The notes below the pieces were generated by a model. That model was not told the origin of the DNA, did no database searches, and saw only the letters and a list, made by a program, of their open reading frames with translations. A stretch of DNA of 64,000 nt from an uncultured bacterium. Lineage in GTDB: Bacteria; Armatimonadota; HRBIN16. This document shows, in pieces, positions 6,116-43,109 of this stretch; position 1 is the stretch's first letter, and every line of letters starts with the position of its first letter. The DNA lies in NCBI GenBank assembly GCA_938027655.1, contig CALJAP010000021.1, forward strand, positions 15,879 through 79,878, written 5' to 3'. Both the position numbers and the translations under genes were made by a program.

Positions 6116-7051
6116 GTGGCATTCGTCGAAACACACAACCTGACCAAAAAGTACGGTAATCTGGTAGCGGTGAATAATCTGAATCTGCGCCTGGACGAAG
6201 GGGACATTCTCGGCTTTATTGGACCCAACGGTGCAGGCAAGACCACGACCATCCGGATACTTGCCACCCTGCTGGAACCGACGAGCGGTACCGCTACCAT
6301 CGCAGGGCACGACGTGGTGAAGGAGCCGGAAGCGGTGCGACGGATTATCGGCTACATGCCCGACTTTTTCGGCGTGTACGATGATGTGAAGGTGTGGGAG
6401 TATCTGGACTTTTTCGCGTGCGCCTACCGCGTGCCTCGCTCGGAGCGGGCAAAGCTGATCGATGATGTGCTCGCGTTAACCGACCTGTCGCATAAGAAAG
6501 ACGACTACGTGGAAGCGCTCTCGCGCGGAATGAAGCAGAGGCTATGCCTTGCCAAAACCCTGCTGCACAACCCGCAGGTGCTGTTGCTGGACGAACCGGC
6601 ATCGGGCTTGGACCCACGCGCCCGCATCGAGATAAAAGAACTGTTGAAAGAACTGCGGAACATGGGCAAGACCATCCTTATCTCCTCGCACATTCTGCCC
6701 GAACTGGCGGATATCTGCAACAAGATTGCCATCATCGAGCGCGGAGAACTGCTCATCAGCGGCGAGATCGATACCATCATGCGCCAGCTGACCGGCTCGC
6801 ATGTGCTGGAGATCAAGGTTGCCGACGATGAGGAAGCCGCCGTGCAGGTGCTGCAGAACCAGCTGGAGGACATCCGTGAGGTGCGGGTGGAGGATGGGGT
6901 TATTCGGGCGCACTATGTCGGTCCCCCAGGCGAACACTACCGCGTGGTGTGGGCACTGGCTGAAAAACGGGTAAAGGTGCTCTCCTTTGCCGAGCAGCCT
7001 ACCGACCTCGAAGACATCTTTATGCGCGTCACACAGGGAGTGGTGCAGTAG
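6116..7051 (+). CDS. ABC transporter ATP-binding protein (ABC-2 type)
   Basis: Walker A GPNGAGKTT, LSRGMKQRL signature and Walker B LLLDEP. The start is probably GTG at 6116, with GAGGAG 7 nt upstream. The ORF track extends the frame to 6077. Confidence 0.85.
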   Translation: MAFVETHNLTKKYGNLVAVNNLNLRLDEGDILGFIGPNGAGKTTTIRILATLLEPTSGTATIAGHDVVKEPEAVRRIIGYMPDFFGVYDDVKVWEYLDFFACAYRVPRSERAKLIDDVLALTDLSHKKDDYVEALSRGMKQRLCLAKTLLHNPQVLLLDEPASGLDPRARIEIKELLKELRNMGKTILISSHILPELADICNKIAIIERGELLISGEIDTIMRQLTGSHVLEIKVADDEEAAVQVLQNQLEDIREVRVEDGVIRAHYVGPPGEHYRVVWALAEKRVKVLSFAEQPTDLEDIFMRVTQGVVQ

Positions 7052-8469
7052 TGATAGAACGACTGGAGAACCCCGTTTTTCGACAATCCTCGCGTCAAAG
7101 GATGCGCGGCGCGCGGACGTATGGCTGTCTGTTGGCTTACCTGCTGGTGCTGGGGCTAGTGGTTATTATCTCATACGACCAGTTTGTAGCGCATGGAGTA
7201 CAGCGCACCACCACCGGTTTGGCGCAGATGCTGTTCGGTACGCTCGCGATGACCCAGTGGTTTCTGGTGGCTTTTATAACGCCGGCTCTCACCACCAGCG
7301 CGATCACGATGGAGCGCGAGCAGCGCACGTACGACCTGTTGATGATGACACCCCTTTCCCGTTTTACCATCGTGTGGGGCAAGTTCGCTTCCGCGCTGGC
7401 GTTCACGGTGGTGATGATTGTGTGTGGGATGCCACTGGTAGCGGTGCTGTTCCTGATGGGCGGCGTAGACGTTGGCTTAATGCTCACCCTGTACCTCGGT
7501 ATGCTCGCTACCGGAGCGGTGCTGGCAGCGTACGGTCTGATGATGAGTACAATATGTGCAACCTCCACCCTAGCAAACCTGCTCACTTACGGCAGTCTGG
7601 CAGTCGGGTACTTTGGGGCTGCTGTTACTGGGACGGCTTATACGCTCAGTCGGGCGTTCGGGGGCGGTTCTTTCAACATGTTGTGGCTGGGCGCCGGTTT
7701 GACCTCCTGGCAGATGTGGACTTTCGTGGTGTTAACCCTGCTTCTTACTGTTTGGCTGTTGTTGCAGATAGCCAGCAACTATCTGCTTGCCGACCCCCGT
7801 GCGGGAGCGTGGAAGACTCGATCGCTGTTGATTGCGTTGTATCTGCTTATTCTCGTTGCTACCCTCCTCGACGCACAAGCGACAACTCGCACCTCCGCCT
7901 CAGCCAATTATCTGGGTGGACTGTTCGCGTTCTTGTGGGCATTGGTGATTCCTGCGTTGTTCACGGGGGTTCCTTACGGCAGCAAGAAGTGGTATGAGTG
8001 GCTGTACCCAAGTAGTCTACGGGTGGGCGCGATACAGAGCGCGTTGCCCTTCATGTGTCTCATCGTGCTCACGGCGATTGTGGCAGACCGTTTCATGCCC
8101 GCACCGTTGCGCACACAGCCGCTCGTCTGGGCATATGTCATGGGCTACTTCTGCTGGATTTGGTCACTGGGCTACCTGTTGTCGTTTGCCATCCGAAACC
8201 GGTGGGGCGCGCTGTTCGCACTGGTCGGTGTTCTGGCGGTGCTTGTGCAGCTCATCTCCACGGTCAGCATAGTGGACGCCAACAGAGGCGGGCAGCAGCG
8301 GTTTGAATTGCTGCTAAACGTGGCGTTGCCGATTGCTCCATGGGAAGCCAGCGGTAAGATGGACTATCGGATATGGGTGGTGTTGTATCCGCTGATGGCT
8401 ACGGCGAGCCTACTGCTGACCGGTTGGCTTCGCAGATTCCGGAAGAGCGCGGTGACGGAAGGCTCATGA
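7051..8469 (+). CDS. ABC-2 family transporter permease
   Basis: 472-aa multi-pass membrane protein. Its GTG start overlaps the ATPase stop (TAGTG). Confidence 0.7.
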   Translation: MIERLENPVFRQSSRQRMRGARTYGCLLAYLLVLGLVVIISYDQFVAHGVQRTTTGLAQMLFGTLAMTQWFLVAFITPALTTSAITMEREQRTYDLLMMTPLSRFTIVWGKFASALAFTVVMIVCGMPLVAVLFLMGGVDVGLMLTLYLGMLATGAVLAAYGLMMSTICATSTLANLLTYGSLAVGYFGAAVTGTAYTLSRAFGGGSFNMLWLGAGLTSWQMWTFVVLTLLLTVWLLLQIASNYLLADPRAGAWKTRSLLIALYLLILVATLLDAQATTRTSASANYLGGLFAFLWALVIPALFTGVPYGSKKWYEWLYPSSLRVGAIQSALPFMCLIVLTAIVADRFMPAPLRTQPLVWAYVMGYFCWIWSLGYLLSFAIRNRWGALFALVGVLAVLVQLISTVSIVDANRGGQQRFELLLNVALPIAPWEASGKMDYRIWVVLYPLMATASLLLTGWLRRFRKSAVTEGS

Positions 8470-19611: not shown

Positions 19612-20721
19612 CTACAGTTTAATCGCCGTAGATTTTGACGCCTGGCGCACCTCGTCTGCAGTCACCTCGCGTCCCAGACGGTCGGAGAGGTAGATGCCCT
19701 CGCTGATGAGCATAGTAGCCAGAGCGATTTCGGCAGTAGGCAGCAGTTCCACCCGTCCCTGCAGTGCGGCAATCCAGTGGTGCTGCGGCGAGTCGTATGC
19801 GTCGGTGTTTTCAACCAGCTGGTGCCAGCGCCAGTCCGCGCTGTTCAGGTCAAAAGTAGCGTTCATGTCCATGTCAGCGATGGTAGTGAAGTAGCCGAAC
19901 GGATGTAGACGCACGCCGCCTTTGGAGCCGAAGATACTGCTGCCCTCGAAGCCGTCAAGATGCACTGCCCATGCCTCGATGATGTCTATAGTGACATCGT
20001 TGGCGCACTTGACAAAGCCCAGCCCGAGCTCTTCCACATCGTAGCCGCTGATTTCCCGTCGGCGGCAGTCCATGTCAGTTTCCTGGTAGGTCTTGCCGCT
20101 GATGCGTTCGACCTTCGGCAAGCCGAGCAGGTACAGCACCTGTGCGATGTGGTAAACGCCCATATCGTATAGCGCGCCGCCCGCCGCGACCGCTTTCTGC
20201 ACGAAAGAAGCTGTGCCGTATCCGTCCACGTACGGTCTGCCGCGCCGTCGGAAGCCTGTGGAGCGCGCGTGGTACAATTTTCCCAGATAGCCTTCATCGA
20301 TTAGCCTCTTGGCGGCTTTGGTCTCTTTGGAGAAGAGGGTTGCCAGCTGAATCGAGAGCTTCCTGCCTGTGCGTTTAGCCGTTTCGTACATGGCAAGAGC
20401 GTCTATATAAGCACCTGCCATCGGCTTTTCGCAATAGACGTGCTTGCCAGCCTGCAGAGCCTCGATGGTCACGGGAGCGTGCAGGTTGTTGTGCAGGCAC
20501 ACATCGACGGCGTCGATGTCGTCACGTTCCAGCAGTTTGCGGAAGTCGGTTGTCGTATAGGGGATGTGGTAATCCGCGGCAACACGTTGTAGCTCTGCTT
20601 CGTTGATGTCTGCGGCGGCAACTATTTGCGCGCCGGGTATCTGGGCGTACTGGTGTAGATGCATCTTACCAATCTGCCCCACACCAATCATTCCAATGCG
20701 TATCGGTTGCATCAGTTCCAC
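19612..20721 (-). CDS. Gfo/Idh/MocA-family oxidoreductase
   Basis: [21 protein letters not shown] Rossmann N-terminus. Confidence 0.75.
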
Positions 20722-20824
20722 CCCTTGGCAAACAAGTTGTGTACACGATACTGTTCGTTCTGGGTGCGCCGGTTACCTTGTGGTGTGCCGCAGAAAATTT
20801 CTCGAAGAATCACCGGATTCCCCC

Positions 20825-20853
20825 TTGACAAAGATATGGAAATGATGTAGTGT
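20825..20853 (+). promoter_or_regulatory. Candidate sigma70 promoter TTGACA-17-TAGTGT driving the downstream structured RNA
   Basis: Perfect -35 TTGACA at 20825-20830 and a 17-nt spacer. The -10 TAGTGT keeps the invariant A2 and T6. Confidence 0.4.
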
Positions 20854-20859
20854 ATAAGT

Positions 20860-21066
20860 AGAGTGGACCCGTCCCGGTAGAGACCGGGCTACGGAGCCAA
20901 GAGGGGGTTTGCCTGCCCGAGCTGAAGTCGAGAGGCGGGAGGTTTCCCGTCCGGCTTGGTTCGGTACCTGCCCCGCCCTCTCCGGTGTGAAAGCCCCCCG
21001 CTCAGGGGTAAGCCGCTGGATCAAGAGCGCGGAGGTAAGGATTCAACCCCCTCTCCGATTTTTTAT
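20860..21066 (+). ncRNA. Candidate structured small RNA of about 200 nt with unknown identity (possibly 6S-like). It has its own promoter and a 3' U-tract.
   Basis: AGAGGGGGTT at 20900-20909 pairs perfectly with AACCCCCTCT at 21045-21054, closing a GC-rich domain of about 145 nt. Internal helices include GAGAGGCGGG/CCCGCCCTCTC, CCCGG-tagaga-CCGGG and CCCC-gctca-GGGG. The element ends in AUUUUUUA. No ORF is supported. Confidence 0.4.
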
Positions 21067-22853
21067 GCCCCCTTTTTCTGCTCCGGCAACACCACGCGCA
21101 GATGCAGTTCCCGCAGCTGTTTTTCGTCTACCGGCGCAGGTGCACCAAAGAGCAGGTCCTGCGCGGTAGCGGTCTTGGGGAAAGCGATCACCTCACGGAT
21201 GTTCTCATCATCGGTGAGGAACATCACCAGACGGTCAATGCCGGGCGCGATGCCGCCGTGAGGGGGCGCACCGTACTCAAACGCTTCCAGCATGTGTCCG
21301 AAGCGAGCCTGCGTCTCCTCCTCGCTGTAATTGAGCAACCGGAATACTTTCTGCTGGATGTCGCGCCGGTGGATACGGATGCTGCCGCTTGCCCATTCCA
21401 CACCGTTGCACACCACGTCGTAACAGGATGCACGCACGCGGGCGGGGTCGGTATCCAGCAGGGGCAGGTCCTCCGGGTGGGGCATGGTGAAGGGGTGGTG
21501 CATCGGGTCCCAACGTCCCTCCTCCTCGTTCCATTCCACCAGCGGGAAGTCCACAATCCAGCAAAACGCCAGCATGTTCGGGTCCAGTAGCCCTAGCCGC
21601 TTGCCGAACTCGTTGCGCAGACGCGAGAGCACGTTCGCTACCACCTTTGGCTGGTCGGCGACGATGGCTACCATATCGCCTTCCTGCGCTTCGGTGGCGT
21701 GGCGGATGGAGGCTATCTCCTCGCCGGTGAGGAACTTAGCGATGGGCGATCGCACACCTGTTTCCATCCATTGAATCGTCGCCAGCCCCTTCGCACCGAA
21801 TCGCCGGGCGAACTCGGTGATTTCGTCCAGGTCTTTACGGCTGTACTGTGCGCCACCGGGGATGCGAATGGCTTTCACCTGTCCGCCGTTGTCCAGCACA
21901 CTGCGGAAAATCTGCGCCTGAGTGTTTGCCAGCACCGGGGAGAGGTCTACCAGCTCCAGCCCGAAGCGCAGGTCGGGTTTATCCGTGCCGTAGCGCGCCA
22001 TCGCCTCGTCGTAGGTGAGGCGGGGCCAGGGTTTAATCATCTTTTTACTGGACACCGACTCTACCACGAAGACGGTGAGCTCCTCAATCAGCTGCAGGAT
22101 GTCCTCCTGCTCTACGAAGGACATCTCCAGGTCCAGCTGCGTGAACTCGGGTTGGCGGTCGGCACGGGTGTCTTCGTCGCGAAAGCACTTGGCTATCTGG
22201 TAGTATCGCTCCACACCTGCCACCATCAGCAGCTGCTTGAGCTGCTGGGGCGACTGCGGGAGAGCGTAGAAATGCCCGGGATACAGACGCGAGGGTACCA
22301 GATAGTCACGTGCCCCCTCCGGTGTAGATTTGATAAGGATTGGCGTCTCAACTTCTATAAATCCGCGCTCGTTCAGAAACTGACGTATCAGGTTCACCAC
22401 CTTGTGGCGCAGTTCCAGACGATAGAACATCTCCGGGCGGCGCAGGTCCAGATACCGGTAACGCAGGCGCAGCGATTCGTCTACGTTCAGGTTCTCGTCC
22501 GAAATCTGGAAGGGCAGAGGGCGACAGGTATTCAGCACCTCCACATCGGATACCAGCACTTCAATCTCGCCGGTAGCCAGTTTGGGGTTTTCCAGCCCTT
22601 CCGGTCGACGCCGGACGGTTCCTTCTACCGCCAGCACATATTCGGCGCGCACTGTCTCGGCGACCGCGTGTGCTTGTGGGGCGGTGCTGGGGTCAAACAC
22701 CACCTGCACCAGTCCGCTGCGGTCGCGCAGGTCAATAAAGATAAGTCCTCCATGGTCGCGGCTGCGGTGTACCCAACCGTTGAGTATCACCTGTTGTCCG
22801 ATATGTTCCGGGCGCAATGTTCCGCAAAAGTGCGTACGTTTCCACCGTTGCAA
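21063..22853 (-). CDS. aspS: Aspartate--tRNA ligase
   Basis: 596 aa with N-terminal OB-fold anticodon-binding domain and class II synthetase motifs ([18 protein letters not shown]..., GGSIRIHR). Confidence 0.95.
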
Positions 22854-23011: not shown

Positions 23012-23566
23012 ATGCCGTACAAATTCAAGGAGCGGTGGCTGGATCGCGCCCTGCACCGCCGCCACTTCGAAGCCTTTGTGGTGTTCCTGATCATGCTGAC
23101 CGTGTTGGGCATGGTGTTGAATCTCTATGGCAAAGGCAGTGAAGCCGCCAACCGCACCGTCTGTCGTGCCAACCTTCGCCATCTGGTGCAGGCGCTGCGG
23201 TTATACGCCCAGGATTACGACGACCACTACCCTGCACAGACGCGCTGGGTGCGCCTGGTCTCCGCTTACACTGACAACCTGAACGTGTTCTTCTGTCCAT
23301 CGGATAACCGTCCCCGCCCCAGACGCGAACGCGCGGAAGTTGCGGTATCCTACTGGTACAGCCGCCCGCCGTCCGCCGGCGACGAAAGCTCCCTTGCGGT
23401 CTTTGGCGACGTGATGTACTCGAACTGGATTGGCAACCACGAGGACGGCGGCAACGTGGCATATCTGGATGGACATGTGTCGTGGCGCAACGTGGAGCAG
23501 TGGCAAGAGGAGAGGTTGCCTGTGGAACAGCTGGTACGGAAGGGGAAACGTCGGTCAGCGAAGTAA
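23012..23566 (+). CDS. H-X9-DG domain protein (DUF1559-like) with a degenerate N-terminal pilin-like helix
   Basis: C-terminal HEDGGNVAYLDGHVSW (H-X9-DG) plus NVFFCPSD and RLYAQDYDDHYP motifs. The N-terminus HRRHFEAFVVFLIMLTV lacks the canonical G|FTLIEL prepilin cleavage motif. Confidence 0.55.
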   Translation: MPYKFKERWLDRALHRRHFEAFVVFLIMLTVLGMVLNLYGKGSEAANRTVCRANLRHLVQALRLYAQDYDDHYPAQTRWVRLVSAYTDNLNVFFCPSDNRPRPRRERAEVAVSYWYSRPPSAGDESSLAVFGDVMYSNWIGNHEDGGNVAYLDGHVSWRNVEQWQEERLPVEQLVRKGKRRSAK

Positions 23567-23606
23567 CTAAGCATAACCACGCGGTAGAAGGGATGCACAG
23601 GAAAGG

Positions 23607-25109
23607 ATGCTGGCAGCAATAGACATCGGCTCTAATGGAATACGAATGCAGGTTGTCCGACTGGTGGAAGCCAGTCGGTTTGAGTTGGTAAACTACCAGC
23701 GTGCGCCGGTGCGCCTTGGGCAGGATGTCTTTTCGCTGGGCTACATTACGGAAGCCAGCATGGAGGCAACGGTGCAGGCGTTGACCCGTTTCCGCAGCAT
23801 CGTGGAACATCTTGGCGTGCCGCGCCTGCGAGCGGTCGCAACCAGCGCGGTGCGCGAGGCGGAAAACAGTGACATCTTTGTGGACAGAATTGCTTTGCAC
23901 ACAGGCATCACGCCTGAAGTTATCAGCGGCGAGGAGGAGGCGCGCCTTGTCCACCTGGCGGTGAGCAAGGTGTTGGACCTGAGGGAGAAGTACGCGGTAC
24001 TTATCGAAATCGGTGGGGGCAGCGTTGAGGTAACTCTCAGCTACGGCGAAACCATTCTCTCCAGCGAAAGTTATCGTCTGGGCACCGTGCGCCTGTTACA
24101 GAAGTTCGGTAGTGTCACAGACAACCTTCTCTTTTTTAGCCGCATGGTGTTGGAATACGCGGAGCTGGCGCGGCAACGCATCGACCGCGAAATCGGCTCC
24201 CAGAAGATAGACCTCTGCATCGGTACGGGTGGCAATGTGGACGCGCTGGGAGAGCTGCGGCAACGGTTGTTACGGCGACGCAGCAACGAGTTCATCACCC
24301 TCGACGAACTGGCTACCCTAGTAGAGACCGTCGGACAAATGCCCGTTCAGGAACGCATCGACAAGCTGGGATTGCGCCCCGACCGCGCCGATGTGATTAT
24401 CCCTGCGGGCATCGTTCTGCACATGATTGCACGCGAGACGCGCGTGCGCCAGATAACCATTCCACATGTGGGTTTGAAAGAGGGCATCCTCTGGGATATG
24501 TTGCCAGCTGCCATCGGGCAACGCCCCTCCATTGAGCAACAGGTAAAGGCTTCCGCCTTGCGCCTGGCGCAGAAGTACCTGATGGATATTCGGCATGGGC
24601 AGCAAGTAGCCCAATTGGCAGACAGGCTCTTTGAGCAGTCGGAATGCCTGCATCGTCTTGGGGGAGAGGAAAGACTATTGCTCTGGTTAGCCAGCCTGCT
24701 GCATGACATCGGGCAGTTCATTCAGCCAGCAGACCATGAAAAGCATGGCTACTACATCGTGAAGCACAGCCCGCTCATCGGTCTGTCGCCAGCGCAGCAG
24801 GAAGTGGTCGCTCATATCATCCGCTACCACCGCAAAGAGGCTCCTTCACTTCAGGACGACGGGTTCAGAAGCCTACCACAGAGAGACCGATTGACAGTAA
24901 TGAAACTGACTGCTATACTGCGTCTGGCGGATAGTATGGACACCAGCCGCACACGCGCGTTGACAGACGTTTCTCTACAGCCCACAGGGCGGAACGGCTG
25001 GCGCTTGCTGGTGGAAGGAGAGGGTGACCTGCTGCTGGAAAAATGGCAGTTGCGCAAACGCAAGAAGATGTTTGAGGATGTCTTTGGTGTGTCGCTGGAA
25101 ATCACATAG
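23607..25109 (+). CDS. ppx: Ppx/GppA-family exopolyphosphatase with C-terminal HD domain
   Basis: MLAAIDIGSNGIRMQVV actin-like ATPase N-terminus and HD motif LASLLHDIGQF...HEKHGYYIV. Confidence 0.85.
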   Translation: MLAAIDIGSNGIRMQVVRLVEASRFELVNYQRAPVRLGQDVFSLGYITEASMEATVQALTRFRSIVEHLGVPRLRAVATSAVREAENSDIFVDRIALHTGITPEVISGEEEARLVHLAVSKVLDLREKYAVLIEIGGGSVEVTLSYGETILSSESYRLGTVRLLQKFGSVTDNLLFFSRMVLEYAELARQRIDREIGSQKIDLCIGTGGNVDALGELRQRLLRRRSNEFITLDELATLVETVGQMPVQERIDKLGLRPDRADVIIPAGIVLHMIARETRVRQITIPHVGLKEGILWDMLPAAIGQRPSIEQQVKASALRLAQKYLMDIRHGQQVAQLADRLFEQSECLHRLGGEERLLLWLASLLHDIGQFIQPADHEKHGYYIVKHSPLIGLSPAQQEVVAHIIRYHRKEAPSLQDDGFRSLPQRDRLTVMKLTAILRLADSMDTSRTRALTDVSLQPTGRNGWRLLVEGEGDLLLEKWQLRKRKKMFEDVFGVSLEIT

Positions 25110-25124
25110 GGAGGGTAGACCGGT

Positions 25125-26183
25125 ATGGACAGCAATGCCTTCGGTTTACTGGACAAGGCGATACGGGAGCGCACGCGCGTTCTACGTGCGCAGGTGAAGC
25201 GGTGTCGTAAATCGTTCAGCGAGCAAGCGGTGCATGACTTGCGCGTTGCGATGCGACGATTACTGGCATTGATGGATTTTCTGGCGTTTTTCAGCCAGTC
25301 GCCAGCCCTGCGAAAGGCAAGACGTGACATCAAAGGTCACCTCGACGCCTTTGACACCCTGCGCGATACACAGGTCATGCTGCTGGAAACCTCGCAGCGG
25401 ATAACTGAGCTGCCCGCCGTCGAGCCGTTCCATCGCTTCCTGCAGAAGCAGGAGAAACGCTACCTGCGTCGTGCGCAGAAGGACATCAACACCCTGAAGA
25501 ACGGTTATGCGAAACCCCTGCGCAGCGCGCTCAAAACAGCGTCCCAGTACGGCGAGGACGTGCTGGCACCGGTGGATGACGCTTATCAAACCGTTTTGCA
25601 TCGGCTTGCCTTTGTGGACGAGTCCAACACGGCAACGGTTCACCGCGTGCGCATCGCCTTCAAACGCTTTCGCTACAGCGTGGAGGTGGTGAGGCCTCTT
25701 CTGAGCACCATGCCCGATGACCTGATACAGCGTCTCCACGACTACCAGACGCTGATGGGAGAGATTCAGGATATGGAGGTAATGCTGCGAAGTATTGACG
25801 AGTTCGCCACAAGGAATCAGCAGTGCATGATGGAGCCGGTGCGCCAGTTTTATCAGCAGAAGCATCAGGAGAGGGTGTCGGCGTATATCCAGCGCATGAA
25901 CGAGGTATACTCATTCTGGCGCACGGCGCCGGAGCGACCGTTACCGTGGGATGTATCTGCTGTTGCGGAAACGGTGGTTGCGCTGGCCCAAGGGCACGAA
26001 AAAGCTGCTTTCGAGCCGCCGTCCGAAGCCGGGCTTCCCTCTGAACCCGCCGAGGTAGATATACCGGAGGCACAGCCTGCCGAGCACGGCAAGGAAGGGG
26101 ATAGCGGGACAGCAGTTCCCGAAACAGATGCGGAGACAGTACCAGCCAGCGCATCGCCAGAGCAGGAGGAGGTCAGCGCATGA
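25125..26183 (+). CDS. CHAD domain-containing protein
   Basis: VHDLRVAMRRLLALMDFLAFF and RIAFKRFRYSVE are conserved His/Arg helices of CHAD, followed by an acidic C-terminal tail. Confidence 0.7.
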   Translation: MDSNAFGLLDKAIRERTRVLRAQVKRCRKSFSEQAVHDLRVAMRRLLALMDFLAFFSQSPALRKARRDIKGHLDAFDTLRDTQVMLLETSQRITELPAVEPFHRFLQKQEKRYLRRAQKDINTLKNGYAKPLRSALKTASQYGEDVLAPVDDAYQTVLHRLAFVDESNTATVHRVRIAFKRFRYSVEVVRPLLSTMPDDLIQRLHDYQTLMGEIQDMEVMLRSIDEFATRNQQCMMEPVRQFYQQKHQERVSAYIQRMNEVYSFWRTAPERPLPWDVSAVAETVVALAQGHEKAAFEPPSEAGLPSEPAEVDIPEAQPAEHGKEGDSGTAVPETDAETVPASASPEQEEVSA

Positions 26184-40805: not shown

Positions 40806-43109
40806 TCAGTACGCCCACCCTCCGCCTGTCTCCAGCGACTGCCCGAACTGTCCGATGCCAAACCTCTGCACCTCGTGGAAGGCTTTGATGCGTAGGCGGA
40901 AGATCACCTCGCGGTCGGCACGGAAGCCCAGCGGGTTGTCGATATACCCTACGCTCAACTCCCAGCAGTGCAGGTCCCACGTCAGCAGGAGCTGCCTGCC
41001 CTCAAAGCGATTCACGTAGCCGTTGTAGGTGAGAACGGTCTGCACGCGCAGGGGCATTCGGAATATCTGCGTGTCCAGCCAGAGGTTCGCGCTCGCCCAG
41101 CGGTGGCGGATGGGGTCGTACACTCCGTTCAAGTTCATCGAGAAGGGGGCGGTGCGGGCACGCAGGTATGCACGCAGATAGTTCCACTGCCCCTCGTTAA
41201 GGTTCAGCGTGGATTGCACATTCAGCTGCCATGCGGGGTTCGGTTGCCACAGCACGCCCAGGTTCAACGGCTGCCAGGGGCGGCTGCCACGCTGTCGGGC
41301 AAAGAGGTCGTAGCCGGTATACGCCCGGACGGATAGAGCGCGGCTCGCGTTCCACTCCAGCCCCGCCGAGGCGAAGTTCGTGGCGCCAGTATACTCCGTG
41401 CGCAGGGGGGTAAATCCATACGGACGCAGATAACGGTAGTTCATATACCATCGGCTGTTTTGCCCGAAGCGCAGCTGCCAGTCGGAGTTACCTTGCAGGA
41501 TATACTGGGCGGTTCCATCGCTGGTAAACACCTGTCGGAAGAGGGCGGAGGTGCTCAACGAGCTTCTGCCTCCGCTGGAGGTGGTAGGGGTCCAGCGGGC
41601 TTCAAACAGCACACGCTGAATCGGATTGCCCTGCGGCAGCTCGCGGAAACTGCCCAGCCCCAGCTGCATCTGTAGTCCCATCTCCTTACCGAACAGACGG
41701 CGGTCGGTGGTAGAGAGGAGCAGCTCGGGCGTTTTTTCGATGCCGCCGAAGGTGAAGCCTCCCGTCTGCCCACCGATGGGGATAATCCGGTTGAAGGCGA
41801 GGCTCCAGTCAAACTTGCTACTGCTGCCGCTTAGTGAGGCTTGCGTGGCGAGCTGTTCTTGCTCGGAGCGCACCTCCCCGCCCGATTGCGAGCGGAAGCG
41901 CGACAGGTCGGTAGAGAAGGTCAGCGAGGCGCGCGTGCCCCAGCGTTGATTCCATCGGAGTGAACTGGTGGAGGAATCGGTAGAATAGCCCGCACTGCTC
42001 TGCTGGCTGAGACGCGAGAGAAGGGACAGGTTGCCCGACGACCACGCCCGGCTCAAGCTCACCTGCCAGCTGGATGCACGGGTATCCGAGTAGTACAGAT
42101 AGCTTCCCGAACGCAGGTCGCCAGTAAGCCGTGCGTTAAAGCCCAGCAGTTGCTGTTCATGGCGCAGCTGCGCGGTGACGGAGCGGGTAGCGCGACTGCG
42201 GTCGTTCAGGTAGTAGAACGAAAGGAGCCCGGCAGCGCCCTTCCAGAGATACTGCTGGTCGACGCCCAATCCGATACCCTTTTTCTGCATCAGGTCAATG
42301 CGCGCCGTGCCCGCGTTGTCGCCCAGCAGGTAGCCCAGCGCGGTCTTCACATAATACCCCTCTTCCACCGACTGCCCGACCTGCGGCAGGGTACCACGCG
42401 AGAGGCGTCTGTCCAGCGGCACCACCAGCGTGGGTAAGGTAAACAGTTTGCGACCCAGCGCATTCAAGCTGACCGCTCGTGCTACCAGACGCTTATCCAC
42501 CACCACGTCCACGCTGCGGGTGGAAAAATGGTAATGTGGGTGCTCCAGCAAACAGGTAGTCGCCTCACCGTGTTGCATCTGGGCATGCTGTTGCTCTCCT
42601 TGCAGTTGCTGCCCGGACAGACGCACCGCACCACGCAGCTGATTTTTGAGAAACTCGGGCAGGAGGTCTGCGCTCGCGCCCTGCATCTGCCACGAGCGTC
42701 GGCGCACATTCAGGCGAAGCATCTCGCCACGTGCGTCCATTCCACCGCCCTCCAGAGTGACCCTGCCCTGAAACAGGTACTCGCCCCTGTCCAGATTGCC
42801 TTCCACGCTTTCTGCCTGAATGGTGTACTCGCGCCAGCGGGCGAGGATGTCGCTCGCCAGCAGGTTGTTCTGGGCGTCCAGAAAAAGGGTGCCGAACCGC
42901 TCGACATCCAGTCGTTCCACCCTGCGCGAGATGGCTTCGGCAGGTGGTTGCGGTTGTTGGGCGAGGGCAATGCCACTATAGAACAGCAGGAGGGTGAGGA
43001 AGAGGGGGAGGAACCTAACCCCCTGTCCCCCTTCCCTACAAGGGAAGGGGGTGCTTTCTGCGCGGCTCCCCTCTCCTCGTAGGAGAGGGGTCGGGGGTGA
43101 GGTCATCAT
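40806..43109 (-). CDS. Outer-membrane beta-barrel protein, possibly LptD/OstA-like
   Basis: The signal-like segment FLPLFLTLLLFYSGIALAQQ follows an odd 30-aa N-terminus. The protein is 768 aa, beta-rich, and ends in an aromatic residue (GGGWAY). ATG ATG at 43109 has RBS GGAGGTGA. The track ORF runs upstream to 43547. Confidence 0.4.
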   Translation of the reverse strand: MMTSPPTPLLRGEGSRAESTPFPCREGGQGVRFLPLFLTLLLFYSGIALAQQPQPPAEAISRRVERLDVERFGTLFLDAQNNLLASDILARWREYTIQAESVEGNLDRGEYLFQGRVTLEGGGMDARGEMLRLNVRRRSWQMQGASADLLPEFLKNQLRGAVRLSGQQLQGEQQHAQMQHGEATTCLLEHPHYHFSTRSVDVVVDKRLVARAVSLNALGRKLFTLPTLVVPLDRRLSRGTLPQVGQSVEEGYYVKTALGYLLGDNAGTARIDLMQKKGIGLGVDQQYLWKGAAGLLSFYYLNDRSRATRSVTAQLRHEQQLLGFNARLTGDLRSGSYLYYSDTRASSWQVSLSRAWSSGNLSLLSRLSQQSSAGYSTDSSTSSLRWNQRWGTRASLTFSTDLSRFRSQSGGEVRSEQEQLATQASLSGSSSKFDWSLAFNRIIPIGGQTGGFTFGGIEKTPELLLSTTDRRLFGKEMGLQMQLGLGSFRELPQGNPIQRVLFEARWTPTTSSGGRSSLSTSALFRQVFTSDGTAQYILQGNSDWQLRFGQNSRWYMNYRYLRPYGFTPLRTEYTGATNFASAGLEWNASRALSVRAYTGYDLFARQRGSRPWQPLNLGVLWQPNPAWQLNVQSTLNLNEGQWNYLRAYLRARTAPFSMNLNGVYDPIRHRWASANLWLDTQIFRMPLRVQTVLTYNGYVNRFEGRQLLLTWDLHCWELSVGYIDNPLGFRADREVIFRLRIKAFHEVQRFGIGQFGQSLETGGGWAY
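43015..43095. repeat. Two adjacent REP-like palindromes (CCCCCTTCCC-tacaa-GGGAAGGGGG and CCCCTCTCC-tcgta-GGAGAGGGG)
   Basis: Perfect 9-10-bp GC stems. A third copy, CCCCTCTCCC-tgtg-GGAGAGGGG, lies at 45861-45885. Confidence 0.6.

Follow-up and report, generated by a model that had tools for sequence, protein, structure and literature searches.

The raiA motif RNA and similar Breaker/Weinberg motifs are orphan structured bacterial non-coding RNAs that came to light through comparative genomics. A typical 6S RNA is about 200 nt long, has a strong promoter, is very highly conserved and is encoded by a stand-alone gene. Riboswitch-controlled antisense RNAs include a case in Listeria, where a B12 riboswitch is found with AspocR. 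At the ubiG operon of Clostridium acetobutylicum, a downstream, convergent S-box riboswitch controls an antisense RNA (PMC2566862). Here we analysed a 64,000-nucleotide stretch of DNA (64 kb, hereafter the window), whose aspS protein places it among Armatimonadota/Chthonomonadia-like MAGs. Few studies have dealt with the phylum Armatimonadota, most of which is uncultured, and a search of the literature on their non-coding RNAs, on 6S RNA in the phylum and on aspS-linked RNA motifs found nothing relevant.

The predicted RNA lies in a gap between aspS and a gene for a GFO/IDH/MocA oxidoreductase (Table 1). Pfam confirmed both of these flanking genes, which are on the minus strand, and the gap is bounded by the aspS stop codon (21063-21065) and the oxidoreductase start, ATG 20712. 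A sequence-only reading of the same DNA had given the length of the gap as 340 bp; if the oxidoreductase starts at ATG 20712, the length is about 350 bp (20713-21062). The RNA gene, on the plus strand, converges on aspS, with a U-tract that overlaps the stop codon of aspS. Like the raiA-type motifs, the candidate has a stand-alone gene, a multi-stem junction, invariant junction and bulge nucleotides, compensated stems and a narrow range. It differs from them in its Armatimonadota host, in its aspS-convergent position and in having no sequence or structure match in Rfam. We consider it probable that the locus encodes, as a gene in its own right, a structured non-coding RNA of about 205 nt that falls outside all described families and works as a partner-binding fold. 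The gene and the fold themselves are very likely real, judging from the comparisons of related sequences described below.

Table 1. Features of the candidate RNA gene and of aspS, in window coordinates. The helices P1 to P4 and the junction are those of the predicted fold.
Feature	Position	Strand	Remarks
-35 hexamer, TTGACA	20825-20830	+	Invariant in 12/12 window-clade variants
-10 hexamer, TAGTGT	20848-20853	+	17-nt spacer; TACTGT, TAATGT or TATAAT in orthologues
P1, two-tier 5' hairpin, GG..CCG.CCCGG-loop-CCGGG...CGG..CC	20865-20898	+	From MFE and RNAalifold; apical loop ends GAC
P2, 5' strand, AGAGGGGGTT	20900-20909	+	Perfect inverted repeat with 21045-21054
Junction J2/3, TGCCTGC, unpaired	20910-20916	+	Invariant across both lineages (alignments A5 and A6)
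P3, long hairpin with internal loops	20917-20964	+	Variable apical tetraloop (GGTT in the window)
P4, long hairpin	20967-21040	+	TGAAA bulge, CCCC-gctca-GGGG, TAA bulge and internal loop
TGAAA bulge in P4	20988-20992	+	Conserved, 5 nt
P2, 3' strand, AACCCCCTCT	21045-21054	+	Perfect complement of AGAGGGGGTT
U-tract, ATTTTTTA	21058-21065	+	Presumed 3' end; 4 nt past P2; overlaps the aspS TAA at 21063-21065 (minus)
aspS (aspartyl-tRNA synthetase)	21063-22853	-	Pfam tRNA-synt_2, GAD and anticodon-binding OB domain

The predicted RNA consists of a 5' hairpin (P1) followed by a three-way junction, which is closed by P2 and carries the long hairpins P3 and P4. The same layout emerged from the MFE fold of the window, from RNAalifold with 5 and with 13 sequences, and from an independent MFE fold of a diverged copy at locus L088. 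The plus strand of the region 20858-21066 has an MFE of -101.2 kcal/mol (z = -3.77), a value that none of 200 shuffled sequences equalled, while the minus strand of the same region gives a weaker fold (z = -2.06). The sequence-only reading had proposed a structured RNA of about 200 nt on the plus strand, and the plus-strand fold, the shuffles and the relatives all agree with this. Several of the elements it named were found again. These were the 5' hairpin CCCGG-tagaga-CCGGG (20873-20888), the hairpin CCCC-gctca-GGGG (20996-21008, within P4), the U-tract after the domain and the 10-bp GC closing helix, which proved perfect in an inverted-repeat search, with 135 nt between its arms.

One proposed element, the internal helix GAGAGGCGGG/CCCGCCCTCTC, did not hold up. 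The complementary sequence is present but is used by neither the MFE fold nor RNAalifold, and in alignment A3 three of the six outer pairs break in L088. A local hairpin, GGCGGGA/TCCCGTC, is kept in its place. Inspection by eye of possible pseudoknots among J2/3, the GAAA bulge and the hairpin loops revealed none that both lineages keep. In P3, AAGUCG/CGGCUU resembles helix P4 of RNase P, a likeness that was dismissed because L088 does not keep it, and GGA motifs of the CsrA type were too few and not conserved in L088.

The sequence-only reading had named conserved homologues in relatives as something to look for. Such homologues were found, and their core is conserved far above its flanks. 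We recovered 11 distinct orthologous variants from Armatimonadota/Chthonomonadia-like MAGs and metagenomes, all of them at the 3' end of aspS. Orthologous gaps are present in two GTDB genomes with aspS proteins 95% and 93% identical to that of the window (L004 and L005, respectively) and in a lineage with 90% aspS identity (L084-L086). A pattern scan of metagenomes returned 13 matches, 12 of which were true (L097-L107 and L109); all of these belong to the window clade and adjoin aspS, and two of them, L101 and L106, are repeats of L005 and L084. The remaining match, L108, was a chance match.

Outside the window clade, a diverged copy is carried by the P0004 lineage (loci L088-L090), whose aspS is 73% identical. 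This copy was detected by nhmmer (E = 6e-14) and by a covariance model (142.8 bits), and in L088 it lies directly downstream of aspS and convergent with it, as in the window clade. We searched about 800 kb of sequence with nhmmer and with covariance model R1, covering 80 GTDB-species aspS loci and the flanks of sister lineages with up to 10 kb on each side, and found no further homologue. By these two methods, no copy was present within 3-10 kb of aspS in nine sister lineages with 68-72% aspS identity (P0003, P0005, P0006, P0008, P0009, P0010, P0017, P0022 and P0024), nor at the other GTDB aspS loci (L006-L083, aspS 57-66% identical). Within the window, R1 also matched about 66 nt of the minus strand at 42993-43058 (12.5 bits, E = 0.37), which is probably noise. 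Viral contigs scanned with the pattern used for the metagenomes yielded nothing, and there was no sign of a phage or mobile origin. Among the loci searched, homologues are thus confined to a single Armatimonadota clade and a sister lineage, which fits the lineage-specific sRNA that the sequence-only reading had left as one option. Since the RNA was not found near aspS in the sister lineages, it is not a housekeeping RNA of universal occurrence, unless those lineages have it at another place or in a form too diverged to be detected.

Gene order around the RNA is variable except for aspS, which is the only conserved neighbour and whose adjacency is shared by the window clade and L088-L090. On the far flank, the window clade has the GFO gene whereas L088 has CorA, encoded on the same strand as the RNA. 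Upstream of aspS, the gene also varies, being a hypothetical protein/Ppx, URO-D (L084) or hisS (L088).

Sequence conservation is concentrated in the RNA. Over its core (20866-21056), identity to the window was 97.9% in L004, 95.8% in L005 and 96.3% in L084. In the same order, the values were 85.4%, 84.9% and 81.8% for the aspS coding sequence, 83.4%, 84.0% and 80.1% for the GFO coding sequence, and 70.6%, 76.7% and 64.4% for the rest of the gap, where the portion adjoining the oxidoreductase start was the least conserved. Judged from these identities, the candidate RNA is under stronger purifying selection than the adjacent essential gene aspS. Variation is also unevenly spread within the RNA: among the 12 clade variants, only 5 of 128 paired columns vary, compared with 28 of 68 unpaired columns (Fisher p = 1e-10). 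Three stem changes fall within the junction domain, and all of them replace G-U by G-C or A-U so that pairing is kept; pairs of P3 survive such changes, while its apical loop (columns 86-89) varies within the clade. Loop positions of P1 are likewise variable among the window-clade variants.

The comparison with L088 provides double changes in paired positions. In the MAFFT alignment A5, 98.0% of cells pair when aligned in register, versus 35-52% in slid registers, and six pairs have double changes, a number that none of 500 shuffles reached. The model-fitted alignment A6, which leans towards the model, has 10 such pairs; over both alignments, slid registers range from 35% to 53%. Three (A5) to six (A6) compensatory pairs are located in the basal part of P4, and the apical hairpin of P4 has a change from C-G to U-A in L088. 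P2 has seven invariant pairs out of ten and one pair that changes from U-A to C-G in L088. At the place equivalent to P1, L088 has a hairpin with another sequence, GGCA..ACCGA-ugacu-UCGGU..UGCC, and J2/3 belongs to a 13-nt block, TGCCTGCCCGAGC, that is identical between the window and L088. All of the compensatory changes come from this one diverged lineage and are effectively one independent comparison; they are supportive of the predicted fold, at a level below R-scape grade.

We assign the RNA to the plus strand by the direction of its promoter and by seven G-U pairs in the conserved structure, which would become C-A on the minus strand. An element of the minus strand would belong either to aspS itself, as its 3' UTR or terminator, or to an operon of aspS and the oxidoreductase gene, as a leader or intercistronic structure. 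Such an element would suit the shared strand of the two genes, the lack of an aspS terminator ahead of the RNA gene and a minus-strand fold that is somewhat better than shuffles. The fold is nevertheless weaker on that strand, where the G-U pairs turn into mismatches, the conserved promoter faces the other way, and the gap sequence near the oxidoreductase start is the least conserved. In L088, moreover, CorA takes the place of the oxidoreductase gene downstream and shares the strand of the RNA, and a terminator is called for that strand only. We regard a minus-strand element as highly improbable.

Equally, the region could be read as a small protein gene, for example the ORF at 20909-21169 (plus) or at 20773-21024 (minus), as ORFs of 83-101 codons do overlap the RNA. 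These ORFs begin with TTG, run into antisense aspS and have no Pfam match. Indels of 1 nt and 2 nt between close relatives, and of +2, -4 and -1 in L088, shift every frame, and a conserved reading frame or peptide is therefore excluded. Substitutions track stems and loops, not codon positions. A protein gene at this place has next to no likelihood.

A TTGACA-17-TAGTGT promoter had been proposed from the window sequence. The hexamers and the spacer are present as described, but our promoter scan makes no call there, because TAGTGT agrees with the -10 consensus at only three of six positions. In the orthologues the -35 hexamer is invariant and the -10 hexamer keeps TAnnnT, that is, a sigma-70-type promoter is conserved upstream at a fixed distance. 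One orthologue, L104, has a promoter that matches the consensus at 12 of 12 positions, TTGACA-16-TATAAT, together with an upstream TG. Transcription probably starts near 20859-20861.

At the other end, every clade variant keeps a run of 4-7 T, of which aspS constrains the TTA only. The sole stem before this run in the window clade is the long-range P2 (135 nt enclosed, 4-nt spacer), and a terminator scan makes no call; the window-clade terminator is atypical. L088, on the other hand, has a canonical terminator (an 8-bp stem, then T7) 25 nt after P2, called on the RNA's strand only. In the window, transcription would stop at the U-tract after P2, and a transcript running from near 20860 to this point would be about 205 nt long.

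In neither lineage does aspS have its own terminator (window 21058-21065; L088 11786-11814), and the RNA's U-tract in the window, or its terminator hairpin in L088, starts 0-4 nt from the aspS stop codon. Transcripts of aspS must therefore cross the RNA gene in antisense or use that hairpin in reverse.

Known RNA families gave no match. Rfam 15 (4227 families), run on the whole 64-kb window, produced no match at the gathering score, and at E-values up to 10 the gap and the L088 copy returned only noise (E > 5 for the gap). The noise comprised PyrR207, TLS-PK6, ar7, STnc130, a CRISPR direct repeat, mir-564 and suhB, with scores between a quarter and well under half of the gathering scores. ARAGORN found no tRNA and no tmRNA in the 64-kb window. 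These results bear out the view that the candidate is none of the ubiquitous RNAs (SRP RNA, RNase P RNA and tmRNA). The window as a whole is unusually RNA-poor, having no tRNA, tmRNA or Rfam family at the gathering score.

The sequence-only reading had further suggested a 6S-like RNA. As a divergent 6S RNA or an analogue, the candidate would be abundant, mimic an open promoter and bind or sequester the sigma-70 RNA polymerase holoenzyme. It resembles 6S RNA (ssrS) in its size of about 200 nt, its own strong promoter, its very high conservation, its stand-alone gene and its non-coding nature, and the 64-kb window contains no canonical 6S RNA, which says little for the whole genome. However, 6S covariance models did not match the gap or the L088 copy at E-values up to 10. 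The predicted structure differs as well: the 5' end folds on itself instead of pairing with the 3' end, and the supported core is a three-way junction without a long rod or large central bubble. The rod-like helix GAGAGGCGGG/CCCGCCCTCTC of the sequence-only reading breaks in L088. Nor was the RNA found in the sister lineages within 3-10 kb of aspS. We consider a 6S-type function very unlikely and the 6S-like label a poor description of this RNA.

The position of the gene raises another explanation, in which the RNA is a sensor that gates antisense transcription into aspS, its fold setting stop versus read-through at the U-tract. The folded domain, possibly held stable by a ligand (aspartate or tRNA-Asp, for example), would form P2 and halt the polymerase where aspS has its stop codon; if folding failed, the polymerase would read on, and the resulting RNA, antisense across aspS, would lower aspS expression. 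The only context conserved between the two lineages is that the RNA gene runs convergently up to the stop codon of aspS, and in the window clade P2, which closes the domain, is also the only stem before the U-tract. The convergent S-box at the ubiG operon of C. acetobutylicum is a precedent (PMC2566862). As in riboswitch-controlled antisense RNAs, there is a gene-convergent promoter, a conserved folded domain and a putative terminator that abuts the 3' end of the gene. Unlike in those RNAs, there is no known aptamer and no conserved antiterminator, and read-through is hypothetical. L088 has a strong, separate canonical terminator with no competing antiterminator found, and P2, a very stable 10-bp G+C helix, should form regardless of a ligand. 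The alternative pairings in the window (one inverted repeat and the GAGAGGCGGG/CCCGCCCTCTC helix) are not conserved in L088. The RNA was also not found adjoining aspS in the sister lineages searched. The position expected of a riboswitch leader does not apply here, as the only sequence downstream on the plus strand is antisense aspS and both neighbouring genes are on the minus strand. Taken together, we find a sensor of this kind unlikely.

A more specific form of the sensor involves the aspartate codon. The P1 loop has GAC at its 3' edge, at 20882-20884 in the window (..GACCGG, in 12/12 variants) and at about 11999-12001 in L088 (AUGACUU), despite the difference in the remainder of P1. This is a weak hint in favour of a sensor. 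The shared GAC may be a coincidence, the probability of which we roughly estimate at a few percent. With T-box leaders, the candidate shares its tie to an aminoacyl-tRNA synthetase gene and, in both lineages, a hairpin loop that contains GAC. Its position, however, is antisense to aspS and downstream of it, and not in a 5' leader. Known riboswitch aptamers in Rfam, including the T-box, did not match the gap or the L088 copy at E-values up to 10, and the candidate has no T-box sequence, no antiterminator and no conserved UGGN. That the three-way junction senses tRNA-Asp (via the GAC of the P1 loop) or aspartate and thereby sets stop versus antisense read-through over aspS seems quite unlikely. 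If the sensor reading were true, an aminoacyl-tRNA synthetase would here have a riboregulator that acts by antisense and is not a T-box.

Our preferred reading remains that of an independent RNA that would work via its folded shape, as a stable RNA binding a partner, which could be a protein or a small ligand. The invariant nucleotides of the junction (UGCCUGC) and of the bulge (UGAAA) would then form the binding surface. We give this folded, partner-binding, trans-acting mechanism about an even chance. The RNA probably does not act as a linear antisense RNA or through seed pairing like an sRNA. Comparison of the related sequences gives good support to a new, narrowly distributed family of structured non-coding RNAs, of a kind that is already known, namely the orphan lineage-specific structured RNAs of bacteria. 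The RNA is a clean candidate for a new family with a specific partner, be it a protein, a ligand or possibly the aspS/tRNA-Asp system. Its range known so far is narrow, and for now it would be less a surprise than a solid addition to the list of orphan structured RNAs. At about 200 nt, it is a concrete target for metatranscriptomics, in-line probing and pull-downs.

We also noted several features in the surroundings of the RNA gene. The window contains an imperfect inverted repeat of 12 nt (83%) between 20718-20729 and 20896-20907. The oxidoreductase mRNA has, in its ribosome-binding region, a sequence (GCCAAGGGGTGG, minus strand) similar to GCCAAGAGGGGG, which is located where P1 meets P2 in the RNA. 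The likeness between the two RNAs is one of shared sense and not of complementarity, and L004 and L005 do not keep the oxidoreductase side. On the other side of aspS, the plus strand at 23012-26183 encodes a 184-aa protein without a recorded Pfam match, a Ppx-GppA/HD phosphatase and a CHAD-domain protein, the latter two being a polyphosphate-related pair; these genes were taken from locus L001, which has an identical aspS. In L084 an ABC transporter and URO-D take the place of this flank, and in L088 hisS does. In L087, a sister lineage without the RNA near aspS, an IS110-family transposase (DEDD_Tnp_IS110, Transposase_20) is encoded at 6706-7998, upstream of hisS-aspS.
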